This document shows, piece by piece, positions 3,234 to 58,262 of a stretch of 64,000 nt of DNA. Source of the DNA: a virus; IMG/VR virus record IMGVR_UViG_3300036790_000425, positions 98,436-162,435 of that record; one strand, 5' to 3'. Positions within the stretch are counted from its first letter, which is position 1. Each line of letters starts with the position of its first letter. The notes below the pieces were generated by a model. The model searched no databases. It worked only from the letters and a program-made list of their open reading frames with translations, and was not told the DNA's origin. The translations under genes and the position numbers were made by a program.

Positions 3234-5054
3234 TCATGCGAATGAGCCCATCGTGTTCCCGGCCTTGGCGATGATGTTGGTGTCCCCGAAGACCGGGATG
3301 GTCATGGCGCCGAACTCGATGTCCACCGGATTGCCGGCGGAGTCCACGTAGGATGTCGTGGCCACGCCATCAAAGGTCTGCTGGATGCCCACCCCGAAGT
3401 CGCTGGCGGCGGCCGGGTTGTAGCCGGGCCAGTCGCTGCCGACCAGGAACCGGGAGGCGATCACGCCCGGTGTGTTCTCCACTACCTGGAGCACGCTGGA
3501 GGGGTACAGCCGCGAGCTGAAGCCGAGCTGACTGAGGTAGGTGGCCAGCGCCGTGTTGATCGCCTGCTGGGTCACCTGCGGCGAGATCGTCGGGTCATAC
3601 ATCACGGCCAGGTTGAATCGCAGGTCCGCGGCTACGCCCTGGTGGGCCTGCACGTCAGTGCCGGCCAGCCGCCAGGACTCCAGGCTGCCCTGGATGGCGT
3701 AGGGCACGTCGTTGTAGGTGTAGTCCTCGCTGATCACCAGCGGGCTGCCCGCACCCGGGCCGAAAGCCATGTCCCACTCCAGGCCGAAGTCGGAGTAGGG
3801 GCTCCAGCCGAAGGCGCCGGTCCGGTGCACGATCTGGTAGGCGTAGGTGACCCCGCCGGTCACGGTGCCCATCGGGTTGGTCAGGCTGGCCAGCCCGTAG
3901 GTGGTGCCGCCGGCCACCAGGGTCGGGGGCACCGTGATGATCGGCCCGTAGGGCAGCGCGATGAAGGCATTGCCGGTGGCCGGGGAGCTGCCGTCGGGCC
4001 GGACGAAGTCGCCCGCGTACCAGCTCGACCCCGGGCTGGCCTGGAACAGCACCGCGTCACTGAACTTCACCGTGGCCGCCGCGTTGACCGCCCGGGTGCC
4101 CTGGCACCAGACGTCCACCCGGGCGTAAATGCCCTGGGCCGGGTTGTTCCGGCTGGCCGTGTCAAGGTACAGGAAGCTCACGTCGATGAGCTGGCCCTCG
4201 GGGAAGTAGGTCGCGTCGATGACCTGCACCTCAGGCGGATTGGCCGCGGAGTCCCAGGTGTACTGGATGCCCGGCGCCGCCACGTCGCCGTCGTCGATGT
4301 TGTTGCCGACCACCTGGCCCGAGGGGTAGGTGTACTGGGCATCGGAGACCGTGCTCGCGGCCGAGCCCGAGCTGATCTGGAGCTGCTCGCGCCGCCGGGT
4401 AGCCGAGTCCACCACGTTGGCCGAGGTGCAGTCCGGGTCGTTCAGCGCGATGCCCAGGAACATCTGGCTGGTCCCGGCCATGTTCTTGAAGACCGTGGCC
4501 TTCCAGCGGGCCTGGAGCTGGGTGTCGGTCTCCTGGTTGGCCCCGCCGCTCAGGGGGCTGACGTTGGTCACCCCGGTCACCTCGCTGACCGGGGTCATCA
4601 GCAGGGTGAGCTGGCCGCTGGCCAGGTCGCCGTCCGGTCCGGCCACCACGGCCTGGACCGGGACGGTTACCGAGAGAGCCCCGGCGTCCATGATCCCGGT
4701 GGTCACCGTCTGCACTACGACAGTCCCGTCAGCGGAGGCGACCTGGGAGTTGACCGGGATGGTCACGGTATCGCTGGCGGCCGAGCGGGTGAAGGTGACC
4801 GTGCCGCCCGCGCGGGTGGCCGGGTAGCGGGTCATCCCGAACAGCTGCACGAAGGCATCCAGGGCGGCGCCCTGCATCGAGTTGATGTCGTACTGGTAGG
4901 CCAGCATCTGGCTGTCCAGGCTGGCGGCCGAGATGCTGGCCGCTACCGCGTCGATGATCTTGCGGGTAACCGAGCCGGTGGTGGTATCCAGGTCGGGCTC
5001 GCTGGCCGCCAGCGCCGCCACGATCTGGCTGGAGATGTCGCTCTGGCTGGCCAC
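3234..5054 (-). CDS. Baseplate J-like protein
   Basis: G(A)ALDAFVQLFGMTRYPATRAGGTVTF...VPVQAVVAGPDG...GGANQETDTQLQAR are typical gpJ/gp47 motifs. Confidence 0.9.
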   Translation of the reverse strand: MASQSDISSQIVAALAASEPDLDTTTGSVTRKIIDAVAASISAASLDSQMLAYQYDINSMQGAALDAFVQLFGMTRYPATRAGGTVTFTRSAASDTVTIPVNSQVASADGTVVVQTVTTGIMDAGALSVTVPVQAVVAGPDGDLASGQLTLLMTPVSEVTGVTNVSPLSGGANQETDTQLQARWKATVFKNMAGTSQMFLGIALNDPDCTSANVVDSATRRREQLQISSGSAASTVSDAQYTYPSGQVVGNNIDDGDVAAPGIQYTWDSAANPPEVQVIDATYFPEGQLIDVSFLYLDTASRNNPAQGIYARVDVWCQGTRAVNAAATVKFSDAVLFQASPGSSWYAGDFVRPDGSSPATGNAFIALPYGPIITVPPTLVAGGTTYGLASLTNPMGTVTGGVTYAYQIVHRTGAFGWSPYSDFGLEWDMAFGPGAGSPLVISEDYTYNDVPYAIQGSLESWRLAGTDVQAHQGVAADLRFNLAVMYDPTISPQVTQQAINTALATYLSQLGFSSRLYPSSVLQVVENTPGVIASRFLVGSDWPGYNPAAASDFGVGIQQTFDGVATTSYVDSAGNPVDIEFGAMTIPVFGDTNIIAKAGNTMGSFA

Positions 5055-53493: not shown

Positions 53494-53636
53494 GGCCTTT
53501 AATCTCCTCCATTTTCGCTGGTCATAGCGCCGACCATGCATAGAGCGGCCGGATGATCCGTTTGAGATCCGCCGCGCGTAAAAAGGACTTTCCGTCCGCT
53601 GTATGCGTTTAGAACGCATCTGCTAGACTCGTCCTC

Positions 53637-54434
53637 ATGGATGAACCACGACTCTGCGCATGCGAGCCCGGCTGCCAGATTTTCCGCGGGCTCTGTCACT
53701 GCGGCTGCGGGACGAAGACCTCGATCGTCACTCACACCGTCAGGGCCCGCGGCCAGATCGCCGGTGAGCCCATGAGGTACATCCGCGGGCACGCCAGGGG
53801 CGCTCATCACGACCTCACCGAGATCAATGAGGAGCACCGCACCGCGCGGTGCTCCCGCTGCGGCGAGATCACCGTCAAGCGCGACGGCGACCGCTGGAAG
53901 TGCACGACCAGGCTCCAGGCCCGGCACCGGATCAGCAGCATTGACCCGGATGCGCGCACCGCGTGGTGCGGAGCCTGCGGTCAGGTCGTTGACATCGTGC
54001 GGCACAAGCGCGGCGGAGAGCGCCAGGGCAAGGACTGGCTGTGCGGCCCGGAGAGTCGCCGGCGCGCTCAGGAATACAAGGACGCCAACCGGGAGAGAAT
54101 CCGCGAGGGACATAAGACCTGGCGCGCTCAGAACCGCCGCCAGCTCCAGAATGCTCATCTGGTCCGGACCTACGGCATCACCATCCAGGACTACGAGCGC
54201 ATGCTCGTCCTCCAGGGCGGCCACTGCGCCCTGTGCCCGGCCACCCGGGGCAACGCCCGCAGCGAGCTGCTCTTTGTCGATCACGACAAGGAGACAGGCC
54301 TGATCCGGGACTGGCTGCTGTGCGGCAGCTGCAACATCGGGATCGGCTGCCTCGGCCACGATCCTGTGCGCCTGCGCCTGGCAGCTGACTACCTGGAGGA
54401 CGTGCAGCAGCGAGCCGTGCATGCGCTCGTATAG
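53637..54434 (+). CDS. Endonuclease VII-like HNH homing endonuclease
   Basis: CxCGCG N-terminus; 'YGIT..DYERML..QGGHCALC...LFVDHD...IR..LCGSCNIGIG'; TGcTAGACT -10 lies 7 nt before the ATG. Confidence 0.9.
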   Translation: MDEPRLCACEPGCQIFRGLCHCGCGTKTSIVTHTVRARGQIAGEPMRYIRGHARGAHHDLTEINEEHRTARCSRCGEITVKRDGDRWKCTTRLQARHRISSIDPDARTAWCGACGQVVDIVRHKRGGERQGKDWLCGPESRRRAQEYKDANRERIREGHKTWRAQNRRQLQNAHLVRTYGITIQDYERMLVLQGGHCALCPATRGNARSELLFVDHDKETGLIRDWLLCGSCNIGIGCLGHDPVRLRLAADYLEDVQQRAVHALV

Positions 54435-54539
54435 CGGGCTGCTCACTGGCTGCACCTCCTCTCGGGGCTCATCGGGGTCCTGCTACTCCTTCTGGGGCGG
54501 GGAGGCCGGAAAGCTGCATCGCAGTCGTCTTGTCTGGGG

Positions 54540-57500
54540 CTAGTCGATGAACAGGTCAGAGTCGTCGGACCCGCCGAGCGAGGCCGAGGCCGCGCTCGCG
54601 TAGTGCGCCGCGCCCACCGAGGCGAGCGAGGGGGCCGACCGGGTGGCCGTCCGCTGCTGCGGCCGGGGGGCCGGCTGACGGGGCGCCACCGCGGACAGGG
54701 TCCGGATCTCGTGCTCGATCAGCGCGTCCGGCAGCGCGGCGTCCCGCTCGATCGAGGCGGCAACCGCCAGCTCGTCACCCTGGGCCAGCCCGGCGGTGAC
54801 CCGCAGCTTGGCCAGGCGGATCGAGGCGAACGTCCGGGTAGCCGCCTGGTCCTGGAGGGAGGCCGCCTTCTGCTGGCCGCCCTGGCCCTGGCCCAGCAGC
54901 CACGGGAAGGCGGCGCCGTTGTCGCCCTGGCCGCCGATGCCGGGGCCGTGGGCCTTCAGCGGGTCCGGGTCGATACGGACGTCAGTCTCGATGCGGCGCT
55001 GCTCCAGCGGGACCCCGCCGTCCTGTGACGGGTTGGTGCCCTGCACGGGCGCCGTCACGTCGATCAGGTTGGTGGCCGGGGGCGTCTGGATCTCCACGCC
55101 CGGGGTGATCGCCGTGGTGGTCTGCGCGGCCGGCACGCCGCCTACCGAGCCGGGCGTGGTGCCCGGCCGCGACGGGTCATCCATCGTCTCCGGGTTCAGC
55201 GCCTGCTCGGTGGTCTCGGTCGCCGGGGCCTCCGGCGGGTCCGGGACCGGGCTGGCCGGGTTGAGCACGTCCGCGTGCCGCTGCATGACCTGCGCCCGGA
55301 TCGCCGCCAGGTGCTGGTCAGCGCCGGCGGCCCTGGCCAGGAAGGCCAGCTGGGCGGTCAGCACCTCGTTGTCGGCCGTCAGGGCCGCGATGTGGCGCGC
55401 CTGCGCCTGAGCCACGGCTGCGGCCGTCTTGCCTCCAGGCATGTCATCCCTCTCAGACGGGTCGTCCTGTACCTTCTGGGGGCCGCCGGCAGGTTCGAGC
55501 GATCCCTGGCGGCAGGCCGGGCACGGCACGCCCGGCTGCGCGGCCACGTCGGGGGCGAATGTCTGGCCGCAGGCAGGGCAGGCGAGCTGTCCCTGGGGCG
55601 CCGGCGCGAGCTGGTCCTCGTTGCCCTGGTTCTCCAGCTCCTGCCCCTCGCCCTGCTCCTCCTGGCCGGCCTCGGCATCCTCGGCGCCCTGGTCCTGCTC
55701 CTCCTCGCCCGCGGCCTGCTCCTCCTGGCCGGGGAGCTGCGCCGGGGGCTGGCCGGGGACGCCCTGGGCGACAGGCACGCCGTCGGGGGTGAGCTGGTCG
55801 GGGTGCTGGAGCTGGGCGTCGGCGTCCGGGTCGGAGCCCATCGCGTTATCCGGGCCGGTGGTGACCTCGCCGGTCTGGTCCAGCTGGTCGCGGACCTCCT
55901 GGGCCTTGCCGGTGTCCGGGTCCCGGAACAGGCTCGGCGGCACGGTGAATCCGCATACCGGGCAGCGGTCGCCGGACCACACGTCGTGCTCGCCGCAGAC
56001 GGGGCACTCCTCCATCCGCAGGGTGTCCACCTGGGGCGGCACCCGCTCCTCGCCGTAGGCGGTCACGCGGCGGCCGTGGTAGTGCATGTTCTGCTCGTCG
56101 ATGCCGCCGGGGTGGTGCTCCCGGTGGTGCTGCTGCCAGCGCTCCTGGCCGTTGGTGAAGGTCTTCACCCGGCCCTTGCTGGCCCCGGCGCCGCCGCCGC
56201 CCGCGCCGGCCGAGTCCTCCGCCTGGTTCATGCGCTGCTGGCGCAGCCAGGTGGCGGCCTGGACCTCGTGCGGCTTGATCTCGCGGCCGTAGTGCGTGCT
56301 CAGGGTCTTCGCCGCGTCCCGGTACATGTGCGAGACGTGCTCATAGTGCTGCGACTGGCTGGCGGGGAACTTCCCGCCCTCGTCCTTGCTCAGCCGGCGG
56401 CCCGCGGCCACGGACAGGGCGTGCCGGTCCACCACCACCTGGTGATTGCCGCTGGCCTTGTCCTCGGGCGTGTCGTCGCCGTGCTCGATCAGCTTGGCGA
56501 ACGCCCGGGTCTTGGGGCCGTTGAGCACCTTGGAGTGGTGCTCCCCGGCCAGCATCCGCAGGGCGGGCTTCTGCTGACTGCCCATCGCGCCGGAGCCGGG
56601 GCCTGGCGGCTCGCCCCGGGCGGCACTGGAGGCGTTGAACATGTTGATCGGCCAGGCGGTCTGCGGGCTGTAGGCGCTCAGCAGGCCGGCGCCCAGGGCG
56701 TGATTACCCCCGGCGATCGCCCCGGCCACGTGGTGGGCATCGGAGTACCAGCGGCTGCCCAGGTGCTTCTCGTCGTCGTTGGTCTGGTGGTAGGCGTCCA
56801 CGATCTTGTCGGCGTGCAGCGCGTGATCCCGGAAGAACGGGTGATCTCCGGCTTCCTTCTTGCGGGACGGCTTGGCTGCCGGAGCCCCGCCGCCTTCCCC
56901 GGCGGCCGTCCTGGGCAGGAAATGCTCGTCCTGGATCTCCAGCTCGGGCATGTAGTAGACCGGGGTGCTGGCCTGGCTGCGGCCGGCGGTCATCTTCATG
57001 CCGCGGTCATCCACCAATCCGAGGACGCTAGAATGTAGGGCATGGTCAGCAGGTCCGAACTGGACGGACGCTTCATCCGAATAGCTACTGAAGTCGAGCG
57101 CTACATCGCCTCGATCGACATCACTGCCGGACCCACGGCGTGCAACCCGTGGACGGGCGGAACGTTCGATAGCGGGTACCCCCGCTTCTCCCTGGCGGAC
57201 GCGAAGCGATCGAGTGTCCGGGCTCATCGCTGGGGGTGGAAACTGCTGCGAGGCCCGATTGCGCCCGGTCTGGCGGTCTGCCACTCGTGTGACTTCCTGA
57301 TCTGCATGAACCCGATGCACTGGTTCCTGGGCACCAGCGCGGTCAACTCCGCCGACATGGTGGCCAGGGGGCGCAGCCTGCCGGGGGTCAGGAACCCGGT
57401 CGCCAAGCTCACCGAGGCGGACGTTCGGGTCATCAAGTCCGTACTTCTCCCTCAGGTCGCGACCGGCCGGGGCAGTACGCGCAGAGGTCAGCTCACCCTG

Positions 57501-58262
57501 GGAGGCATCGCCGGGCGATACGGCGTCAGCGAAGCGGCCATTGCCTCGATTCGCGCTAGCCGAACGTGGGGACACGTGTAGCCCCCTGCCGTCTGGCTGA
57601 CCGAGCACATAGCACGTCGGGTCGGCCGGGTCCTCGACCAGCAGGCTGTTCTCGAAGAACGACAGCCCGGCGCAGATCTCGTGGATCAGGGTCTCCTCGA
57701 CCCGGCCGGTGCTCTTGTTGCGCTGCCGGATCTTCTTGCCCTTCAGGGCGGGCAGGTGCTTGCAGTACTCGGCCGGGTTGGTGGCCCTGTTGCCGCAGGC
57801 CGAGCACTTCGACCACTCGACATCGACACCCATCGAGGTCCGGTTGACCTTGCCTGCCAGCAGCGCGCCGGCCAGCTTCGGGAAGCGGAGCGCGTCCACT
57901 TCCATCAGGCCCTCGGCCCAGGTGTCCGGGGTGCCGTCCGGGTTGCGGTCCCGGTGCAGGGCGACCGCCACGATCACGCCGCGCGCCCGGCGGTGGCTGG
58001 CGTTGTGGTGGTTGACGAAGACCGGCTTGCCCAGGAAGGTCCGGTAGCCCTTCTCGATCTCGTCCGCCGGGAAGGTGTCGTGGTTGTCGTTGGTCCGGGA
58101 AGAGATCATCCTCGACCGGACGTAGATGAAGCCGGGCCGGGGCTCGTAGTCGAAGGCCACCCGGTGAGCTGACTTGCGCAGGCCCTGATCCTGGCTGCCG
58201 GACCAGGCCTCCAGCACGTTCAGGCTGGCGTACTTACGAATCACCTGAGCCCTCCGTCTCAT
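54540..58262 (-). CDS. Capsid maturation protease/scaffold polyprotein with inserted domains
   Basis: N-terminal 'NDNHDTF..KPVFVNH...TSMG...FFENSLLVEDPAD' prohead-protease-like domain; Zn ribbons; acidic scaffold-like C-terminus; precedes the capsid genes. Confidence 0.75.
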   Translation of the reverse strand: MRRRAQVIRKYASLNVLEAWSGSQDQGLRKSAHRVAFDYEPRPGFIYVRSRMISSRTNDNHDTFPADEIEKGYRTFLGKPVFVNHHNASHRRARGVIVAVALHRDRNPDGTPDTWAEGLMEVDALRFPKLAGALLAGKVNRTSMGVDVEWSKCSACGNRATNPAEYCKHLPALKGKKIRQRNKSTGRVEETLIHEICAGLSFFENSLLVEDPADPTCYVLGQPDGRGLHVSPRSASANRGNGRFADAVSPGDASQGELTSARTAPAGRDLREKYGLDDPNVRLGELGDRVPDPRQAAPPGHHVGGVDRAGAQEPVHRVHADQEVTRVADRQTGRNRASQQFPPPAMSPDTRSLRVRQGEAGVPAIERSARPRVARRGSGSDVDRGDVALDFSSYSDEASVQFGPADHALHSSVLGLVDDRGMKMTAGRSQASTPVYYMPELEIQDEHFLPRTAAGEGGGAPAAKPSRKKEAGDHPFFRDHALHADKIVDAYHQTNDDEKHLGSRWYSDAHHVAGAIAGGNHALGAGLLSAYSPQTAWPINMFNASSAARGEPPGPGSGAMGSQQKPALRMLAGEHHSKVLNGPKTRAFAKLIEHGDDTPEDKASGNHQVVVDRHALSVAAGRRLSKDEGGKFPASQSQHYEHVSHMYRDAAKTLSTHYGREIKPHEVQAATWLRQQRMNQAEDSAGAGGGGAGASKGRVKTFTNGQERWQQHHREHHPGGIDEQNMHYHGRRVTAYGEERVPPQVDTLRMEECPVCGEHDVWSGDRCPVCGFTVPPSLFRDPDTGKAQEVRDQLDQTGEVTTGPDNAMGSDPDADAQLQHPDQLTPDGVPVAQGVPGQPPAQLPGQEEQAAGEEEQDQGAEDAEAGQEEQGEGQELENQGNEDQLAPAPQGQLACPACGQTFAPDVAAQPGVPCPACRQGSLEPAGGPQKVQDDPSERDDMPGGKTAAAVAQAQARHIAALTADNEVLTAQLAFLARAAGADQHLAAIRAQVMQRHADVLNPASPVPDPPEAPATETTEQALNPETMDDPSRPGTTPGSVGGVPAAQTTTAITPGVEIQTPPATNLIDVTAPVQGTNPSQDGGVPLEQRRIETDVRIDPDPLKAHGPGIGGQGDNGAAFPWLLGQGQGGQQKAASLQDQAATRTFASIRLAKLRVTAGLAQGDELAVAASIERDAALPDALIEHEIRTLSAVAPRQPAPRPQQRTATRSAPSLASVGAAHYASAASASLGGSDDSDLFID
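57042..57581 (+). CDS. HNH homing endonuclease nested antisense in the protease gene
   Basis: 'CNPWTG..SGYPRF..RAHRWGW..GPI..VCHSCD..CMNPMHW.LGT..N..DM..RGR' plus C-terminal HTH; TAGAAT -10 lies 7 nt before the ATG. Confidence 0.9.
   Translation: MVSRSELDGRFIRIATEVERYIASIDITAGPTACNPWTGGTFDSGYPRFSLADAKRSSVRAHRWGWKLLRGPIAPGLAVCHSCDFLICMNPMHWFLGTSAVNSADMVARGRSLPGVRNPVAKLTEADVRVIKSVLLPQVATGRGSTRRGQLTLGGIAGRYGVSEAAIASIRASRTWGHV

Follow-up and report, generated by a model that had tools for sequence, protein, structure and literature searches.

To our knowledge, homing endonuclease genes (HEGs) persist in essential genes only when they hide in a self-splicing intron or an intein, or when the gene is split and its products reassemble. 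The locus analysed here holds an HNH endonuclease gene nested, on the opposite strand, within the open reading frame (ORF) of a head-protease polyprotein. It is found in a window of 64,000 nucleotides (nt), i.e. the whole stretch of DNA under study, which corresponds to the final 64 kb (positions 98,436 to 162,435) of the complete 162,435-bp IMG/VR virus record IMGVR_UViG_3300036790_000425, a 162-kb soil actinophage with a guanine-cytosine (GC) content of ~70%.

The closest precedent is the ShiLan domain, a 'hidden' HNH read out of frame within DNA methylase genes of actinophages, mycobacteriophages among them (Arsenault, Gosselin & Gogarten 2025, PMC11855218; Gosselin et al. 2023, PMC9957025), which is an HNH insertion free of splicing. 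In both cases, the HNH resides inside an actinophage coding gene whose own frame remains free of stops, no intron or intein signature is seen, and the patchy distribution recalls homing. A leaderless start of translation is proposed for both, and the host protein is predicted to accommodate the additional peptide (as a loop in ShiLan). The ShiLan HNH, however, lies on the same strand in a shifted frame, is translated from the host transcript and occupies a non-essential methylase, whereas the gene described here is on the opposite strand, codon-aligned, preceded by its own conserved -10 box and lodged in a head-protease polyprotein of the structural module. As for the features by which ShiLan-type insertions are recognised, a stop-free host frame and insertion-free homologues were found, but not the same-strand shifted frame; the element works like the ShiLan type and its arrangement is different.

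Two further kinds of elements are comparable. Free-standing HEGs that split phage genes, such as mobE in Aeh1 nrdA, mobA in the T4 topoisomerase gene and seg43 in phage 25 (PMC2988022), share with the present case a free-standing-type HNH in an important phage gene, no intron or intein, and a retained host function; there, two separately translated polypeptides reassemble, whereas here one continuous ORF is found in 14 of 14 lineages. HEG-bearing inteins and group I introns, as exemplified by I-PfoP3I (PMC3428280) and the LittleE capsid intron (cited in PMC11855218), resemble it in that their endonuclease exploits a conserved position in an essential gene, from which empty alleles are invaded. 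They are removed by splicing and carry their endonuclease on the sense strand, whereas neither a ribozyme nor a Hint domain was found at the present locus. A literature search returned no description of an opposite-strand, codon-aligned and self-promoted HEG in a phage structural gene, the same-strand ShiLan case being the only one found.

In agreement with the preliminary description of this DNA, which was made from the sequence alone, an intact + strand HNH gene lies inside a 1240-amino-acid (aa) - strand ORF. The nuclease gene (P0002, 179 aa, 57042..57581, + strand) is of the HNH_3 homing endonuclease type with a C-terminal helix-turn-helix-like region, and the host gene (P0001, 54540..58262, - strand) codes for a head-protease, cargo and scaffold-like polyprotein and stays open across it. 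The codon boundaries of both genes coincide (58260-57042 = 1218 = 3x406), so that no codons of the HNH gene other than TTA, CTA and TCA could close the host frame, and the window's copy contains none of them. Along the - strand, the prohead protease domain (residues 35-219; 57606..58160) terminates in the highly conserved FFENSLLVEDPADPT and is followed by the upstream copy of a duplicated target peptide, VLGQPDGRG (residues 219-227; 57582..57608), which abuts the HNH stop codon. The antisense-coded segment of the host ORF, predicted as coil, then covers residues 228-412 (57027..57581). Beyond it come the downstream, native copy of the peptide, VLGLVDDRG (residues 413-421; 57000..57026), which runs into MKMTAG..., and the DUF7178 cargo domain (residues 484-673; 56244..56813), whose frame is shared with the protease domain.

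We consider it likely that HNH invasion, together with read-through translation without splicing, accounts for the locus as a whole. A free-standing-type HNH_3 gene with its own -10 box and a leaderless transcript would have invaded the head-protease polyprotein gene on the opposite strand, right after the conserved end of the protease domain and at the start of the hypervariable cargo linker. The insert amounts to whole codons in a codon-aligned antisense register, and the host ORF stays open because the closing codons TTA, CTA and TCA are rare (~0.3%) in this GC-rich DNA. Judging from the sequence, the polyprotein is most likely translated straight through the element as a junk linker: some ~185 unselected, probably disordered antisense-coded residues would thus separate the protease domain from the DUF7178/scaffold part, and neither RNA nor protein splicing would be required. 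During co-infection, the nuclease would presumably cut HNH-free alleles near the conserved FFENSLLVEDPADPTAY-coding sequence, and repair would copy the element in; in the window and in the related locus L012, the recipient target would have been retained beside a second copy brought by the element, giving the flanking duplication. Linker tolerance, cleavage and homing are steps that we infer.

The claim of an insertion holds when the gene is set against insertion-free orthologues. The IMG/VR relatives each encode one long ORF of 1041-1505 aa, and in the shortest of these orthologues (L010, 1041 aa), which is without HNH, the sequence passes from ...PADPTAYVLGQVDTRGL (...DTRGL) to the downstream linker in ~10 codons. 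In addition, three HNH-bearing alleles have HNH-free sisters, namely L004 for the window (pairing support 99/93), L011 for L039 (98/89) and L013 for L012 (93/88, slightly below the starred threshold). HNH lineages were collected from viral, metagenome and genome collections and from protein clusters. Fourteen distinct full-length lineages were obtained, with pairwise identities of 42-85% and all from this phage group; the site, orientation and codon register in the protease gene are the same in 14 out of 14, and none has a stop in the host frame. Wherever flanking DNA exists, homologues at least 54% identical to P0002 are all antisense, codon-aligned and located just past the protease domain; homologues at most 47% identical are not adjacent to this protease. 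A megablast search of the gene against 50,697 phage records gave no match, and the matches obtained by tblastn with the HNH protein in isolated phages were all below 60% identity and mostly annotated free-standing HNH genes; therefore, no isolated phage carries this element. The nested layout is present in L037, contig JAPEOV010000003.1 (152,561 bp) of the Streptomyces sp. NBC_01242 assembly GCA_026340885.1, where the 1376-aa ORF and the HNH gene nested in it are both already annotated in the public record. This cultured Streptomyces strain offers a host clue and an experimental handle for the uncultured phage group.

About half of the close relatives, near-identical sisters included, are without the HNH gene, i.e. 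it varies between presence and absence at one site among close relatives, as homing-type endonucleases do. Mapping the HNH label on a protease-domain tree of 25 alleles requires at least eight changes, at least four of which are forced by well-supported branches. At the DNA level, identity between L039 and L011 is 96% as far as the PADPTA codons; past these the two differ by the element, and beyond the element identity drops to 77%. This break, the patchy distribution on the tree and a ratio of non-synonymous to synonymous substitutions (dN/dS) of 0.18-0.34 in the HNH frame between lineages sustain the proposal of a mobile, functional homing-type gene. Barth et al. (2023, PMC10448857) describe nuclease genes located where genetic exchange between phages has its boundaries, and the present HNH similarly stands at the identity break between L039 and L011 (96% vs. 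77%) and where cargo modules are swapped; the HEGs of that work are intergenic, whereas the HNH here is intragenic and antisense. Next to the element, several HNH-bearing alleles have A[H/Y/F]VLD... vs. AY[L/V]LG... in empty alleles. The VLD variant occurs at the upstream segment in L012 and L039, the window's own upstream copy being without it, and is what a co-converted, cleavage-resistant target would be expected to look like. At the canonical site of L056 (WBZM01001154.1), the HNH copy is N-terminally truncated, which fits a gain-decay-loss cycle.

The bracketing of the insert by VLGQPDGRG and VLGLVDDRG, reported in the preliminary description as a diverged duplication, was found at the positions given above, 582 nt apart, with a similarity above that of shuffled sequences (p about 0.002). 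In L012, the two copies match each other (p < 0.0002) and a duplication of 38-50 nt is visible in the DNA. The window's downstream copy aligns with the native sequence of the HNH-free L004 (PAD..VLGDVDARGLKM, p 0.0002), and that of L012 matches its sister L013 (p < 0.0002); from these alignments, the downstream copy looks like the recipient's native target and the upstream copy would have come with the element. L039 shows a clean replacement with no duplication, and the repeat is therefore the scar of particular insertion events and no functional requirement. It is also not present in L031, L036 and L037, and a general role as processing or cleavage signal was rejected on account of its absence from these four loci.

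As regards the nuclease itself, P0002 matches PHROG endonuclease/HNH families (E 1e-20 to 1e-7). Of 17 family members, 12 match PF13392 (HNH_3), the best with E 5e-10, the window's own copy being sub-threshold (E 0.017, 15.2 vs. 24.8 bits). H81, C83, D84, C88, H93 and N102 are invariant in 17 HNH homologues, and the assignment to the HNH_3 class is made by the match to the HNH/His-Me finger motif, whose catalytic and zinc-binding residues are retained. An AlphaFold model of low quality (predicted local distance difference test, pLDDT, of 60) has a beta-beta-alpha pattern at 78-108, and the HNH profile gave no match in the Protein Data Bank (PDB).

Upstream of the gene, a -10 box, TAGAAT (57029..57034, + strand), is located 7 nt 5' of the HNH ATG and is a probable leaderless promoter, as first suggested in the preliminary description. 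The suggestion gains support from the conservation of the layout: at 15 of the 16 related loci, TANNNT precedes the start codon by exactly 7 nt, with varying surrounding bases and with the variants TAGAAT, TAGTAT, TAGCAT, TACCTT, TACGCT, TATCTT, TACAGT and TAATGT. Such a layout is probably that of a leaderless actinobacterial promoter. An E. coli-type scan detected no -35/-10 pair, no -35 element and no terminator for the HNH gene, and the case for a promoter is built solely on the conserved TANNNT box.

Also observed at this end of the gene was the identity of its first ~35 nt (57042-57077, + strand), which is 100% between the window and L012, the whole genes differing by ~20%. The antisense of these positions reads ..QFGPADH and resembles the host's own ..VEDPAD target motif, and the corresponding N-terminal extension MVSRSELDGRF is not in the more distant nested HNHs of L036, L037 and L043. 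The subfamily-specific 5' end (MVSRSELDG) and the promoter may even have arisen from the reverse strand of a host LVEDPAD target that had been duplicated.

In the HNH frame, the changes between lineages are concentrated at third codon positions. The antisense frame has a dN/dS >1, with 38-55% of the antisense-coded residues identical between lineages, and the GC fractions by codon position of the host frame are 0.80/0.57/0.59 in the insert vs. 0.62-0.75/0.47-0.51/0.93-0.94 in the flanking host sequence. Given this dN/dS, this identity and the missing signature of GC at third codon positions (GC3), the antisense peptide is constrained only to stay open. No Pfam family matched the antisense-coded segment (residues 228-412), and AlphaFold predicted the linker as coil with no secondary structure and a pLDDT <50.

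The host frame remains open through the element, as had been claimed for the window, in all 14 lineages, although synonymous change is saturated and the spacers vary in length. From the PAD motif to the conserved HNH end, the spacer has six different lengths of 11-20 codons, always in whole codons, and the other two frames close within 24-51 codons. In the ~2450 HNH codons of the 14 lineages, antisense stops number zero vs. ~7 expected from the phage's own codon rate or from the rate in free-standing relatives of similar GC3, the latter having 9 antisense stops in 19 genes (11/19 open). The Poisson probability of this zero comes to about 6e-4 for independent lineages, rising to roughly 0.02-0.03 when only half of them count as independent. 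A Met occurs close after the insert in 3 of 7 loci, i.e. there is no conserved internal start. Read-through is preferred over a split gene because of the 14/14 open frames, the whole-codon spacers and this lack of a conserved start. A stronger version, in which codon-aligned antisense nesting would be a distinct and selected HEG lifestyle in GC-rich phages, with its own leaderless promoter, a disposable linker and TTA, CTA and TCA codons purged, is put forward tentatively, as a possibility that we rate below even chances.

Several observations weigh against read-through and the evidence adduced for it. TTA, CTA and TCA together make up 0.29% of the codons here (26/~8900). Among 180-codon stretches of confident genes in the window, 79% are open in the codon-aligned antisense frame, and codon usage gives a probability of about 0.55 that the frame opposite this HNH is open by chance; the caution in the preliminary description that antisense frames are often open in GC-rich DNA was therefore correct. 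An internal control is at hand in the endonuclease VII gene (53637-54434, + strand), which is spanned by an open, codon-aligned antisense ORF of 318 aa (53499-54455) with no family match. As an open frame in one gene is cheap in such DNA, the case for read-through rests on the 14/14 frames and the multiple-of-three indels, and the partial dependence of the lineages makes the stop-avoidance statistic a moderate one only. In the same vein, the low pLDDT of the linker is weak evidence, as only 16 sequences made up the shallow alignment behind it, Rfam is able to detect known introns only, and the window's ATG codons M421 and M423, just past the insert, could start a separate downstream protein.

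This last point is at the heart of the alternative that survives best, although we regard it as improbable: the gene would be in pieces, with a protease ending in an irrelevant antisense tail and a DUF7178/scaffold protein initiated internally (at M421/M423 in the window), and the frame would stay open across the HNH as a by-product of GC-rich codon usage. The frequency of chance open frames (55-79%, 11/19 free-standing relatives, and the endonuclease VII control) speaks for it, as do the Met found soon after the insert in the window, L031 and L034, the separate gene begun by gene callers after the insert in L034 and L035, and the documented gene-splitting by mobE in Aeh1 nrdA and mobA in T4 (PMC2988022). 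However, L012, L035, L036 and L037 have no Met near the junction, an open frame in 14/14 lineages with at least six spacer lengths is needless for a split gene, and the HNH-free relatives have single ORFs (1041-1505 aa). Prohead proteases generally need a physical link to the scaffold part for procapsid entry, and this usual linkage in other phages would, by analogy, also speak against separate proteins.

More improbable again are mature products that lack the antisense-coded peptide, the insert being taken out by a self-splicing RNA that escaped recognition, by translational bypassing or by proteolytic excision. Phage introns can escape models, the host protein is itself a maturation protease, the duplicated flanking peptide of the window and L012 could in principle give duplicate processing sites, and L056 has a second antisense HNH-like gene inside a true intein of the same protease gene. 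Nevertheless, Rfam found no group I or group II intron of known families between 54000 and 59000 on either strand at E up to 1, returning sub-threshold microRNA and small RNA noise near 58240, and neither P0001 nor its residues 228-420 gave a Hint or Intein_splicing match with Pfam. The junctions RG/LHV and DRG/MKM are not intein-like, and the absence of an intein or group I intron signature, already noted in the preliminary description, is thus upheld. Moreover, the frame is kept open, which an intron would not require, and a duplication absent from L039, L031, L036 and L037 is no general processing signal. The translational bypass of T4 gene 60 covers ~50 nt; one of 555 nt would be far longer, and bypassing was rejected as implausible over such a distance.

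The same Pfam search does detect the true intein of L056 (~3400-4100), which lies within the protease domain with the boundaries HEI/C...VVHN/C (PF14890 Intein_splicing, E 3e-9). On its opposite strand, codon-aligned and in the usual place of the endonuclease domain, is a 220-aa HNH_3-like ORF (3436-4098, E 5e-5). This intein-borne antisense HNH-like gene suggests a continuum between splicing-free and intein-borne nesting.

Least probable of all is a domesticated rather than selfish HNH, whose gene or antisense transcript would serve the phage (competitor exclusion, tuning of late protease expression): compatible with the same anatomy and read-through, and favoured by the strong purifying selection and conserved promoter across deep divergence and by the single site throughout the whole phage group, it is opposed by the absence of the gene from about half of the close relatives, near-identical sisters included, and by the truncated copy of L056, as in a gain-decay-loss cycle.

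The invaded gene belongs to the head module. Its protease domain matches phrog_2774 (E 1e-54) and phrog_18299, 'head maturation protease' (E 1e-19), and is 43-45% identical to mycobacteriophage Cali gp93 and Phrappuccino gp53, with which P0001 is also syntenic. Directly downstream, on the same strand, are a gp94-like gene and a major head protein 58% identical to that of Cali. By its domains and these neighbours, the host gene is therefore a protease-cargo-scaffold polyprotein of the head module, and its assignment to the prohead (capsid maturation) proteases of the assemblin/T4 gp21 type is made by sequence family and head-module position. By sequence, the protease domain had no match in the PDB. 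A fold search with its low-confidence model (pLDDT 50-80) was only weakly suggestive: it gave varicella-zoster virus protease at Z 4.9 (102 residues aligned, root-mean-square deviation 4.1) and T4 gp21 at Z 4.7 (101 residues aligned, root-mean-square deviation 4.2), both tied with unrelated MCE-domain matches at Z 5.0-5.7. The DUF7178 domain is recognised by PF23802 (E 1e-33) and phrog_3842 (E 8e-31), and the literature search found no paper that mentions it.

Concerning the linker, the HNH gene is placed exactly at the start of the variable part between the protease domain and DUF7178. This stretch (56950-57600, and its equivalent in L004-L021) is a module-swapping hot spot with sense-coded modules, among which are zinc-ribbon-like CxxC...GWHH.DGMKRDH units, DPRFDGVGLK..GFYVH units and a larger domain in L004 and L016. 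This variety suggests that they may be exchangeable capsid-targeted cargo.

Other observations relate to the polyprotein and its surroundings. The motif TAYGEERVPPQVDTLR (AYGE..VDTLR; residues 734-749 of P0001, ~56015-56062, - strand) is kept as far as the cluster C mycobacteriophage Cali (gp93) and Phrappuccino (gp53), and in the latter it comes straight after the protease domain; the polyprotein may be processed or docked there. In L036 (JGI 3300065511 contig), an in-frame TGA at 4685-4687 (- strand) takes the place of the Cys of EYC.H in the protease domain, i.e. C167 in window numbering, which does not vary among the 16 aligned sequences; a sequencing error, a dead allele or recoding of the codon could each account for the TGA. 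The endonuclease VII family gene mentioned above (PF02945, E 2e-16; phrog_2633, E 1e-22) coincides with a local GC dip and sits between the polyprotein stop (54540) and the gp94-like gene, as a second opposite-strand nuclease of the head module. It probably represents one more mobile nuclease of the free-standing kind. For the ORFs neighbouring upstream, PHROG gave almost no matches.

Taken as a whole, an essential virion-assembly gene appears to tolerate a complete nuclease gene by translating its reverse strand as a linker, and GC-rich codon usage makes such antisense nesting nearly free. If true, this would add to the known ways in which selfish genes colonise coding sequence, and it would mark a permissive insertion site in the head-protease/cargo polyprotein. 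It would also provide a testable system, because the same layout is found on a 152.5-kb contig of the assembly of the cultured Streptomyces sp. NBC_01242. Finally, it would serve as a warning for annotation, since some long 'hypothetical' stretches in the proteins of actinophages may be nothing but the reverse of another gene.

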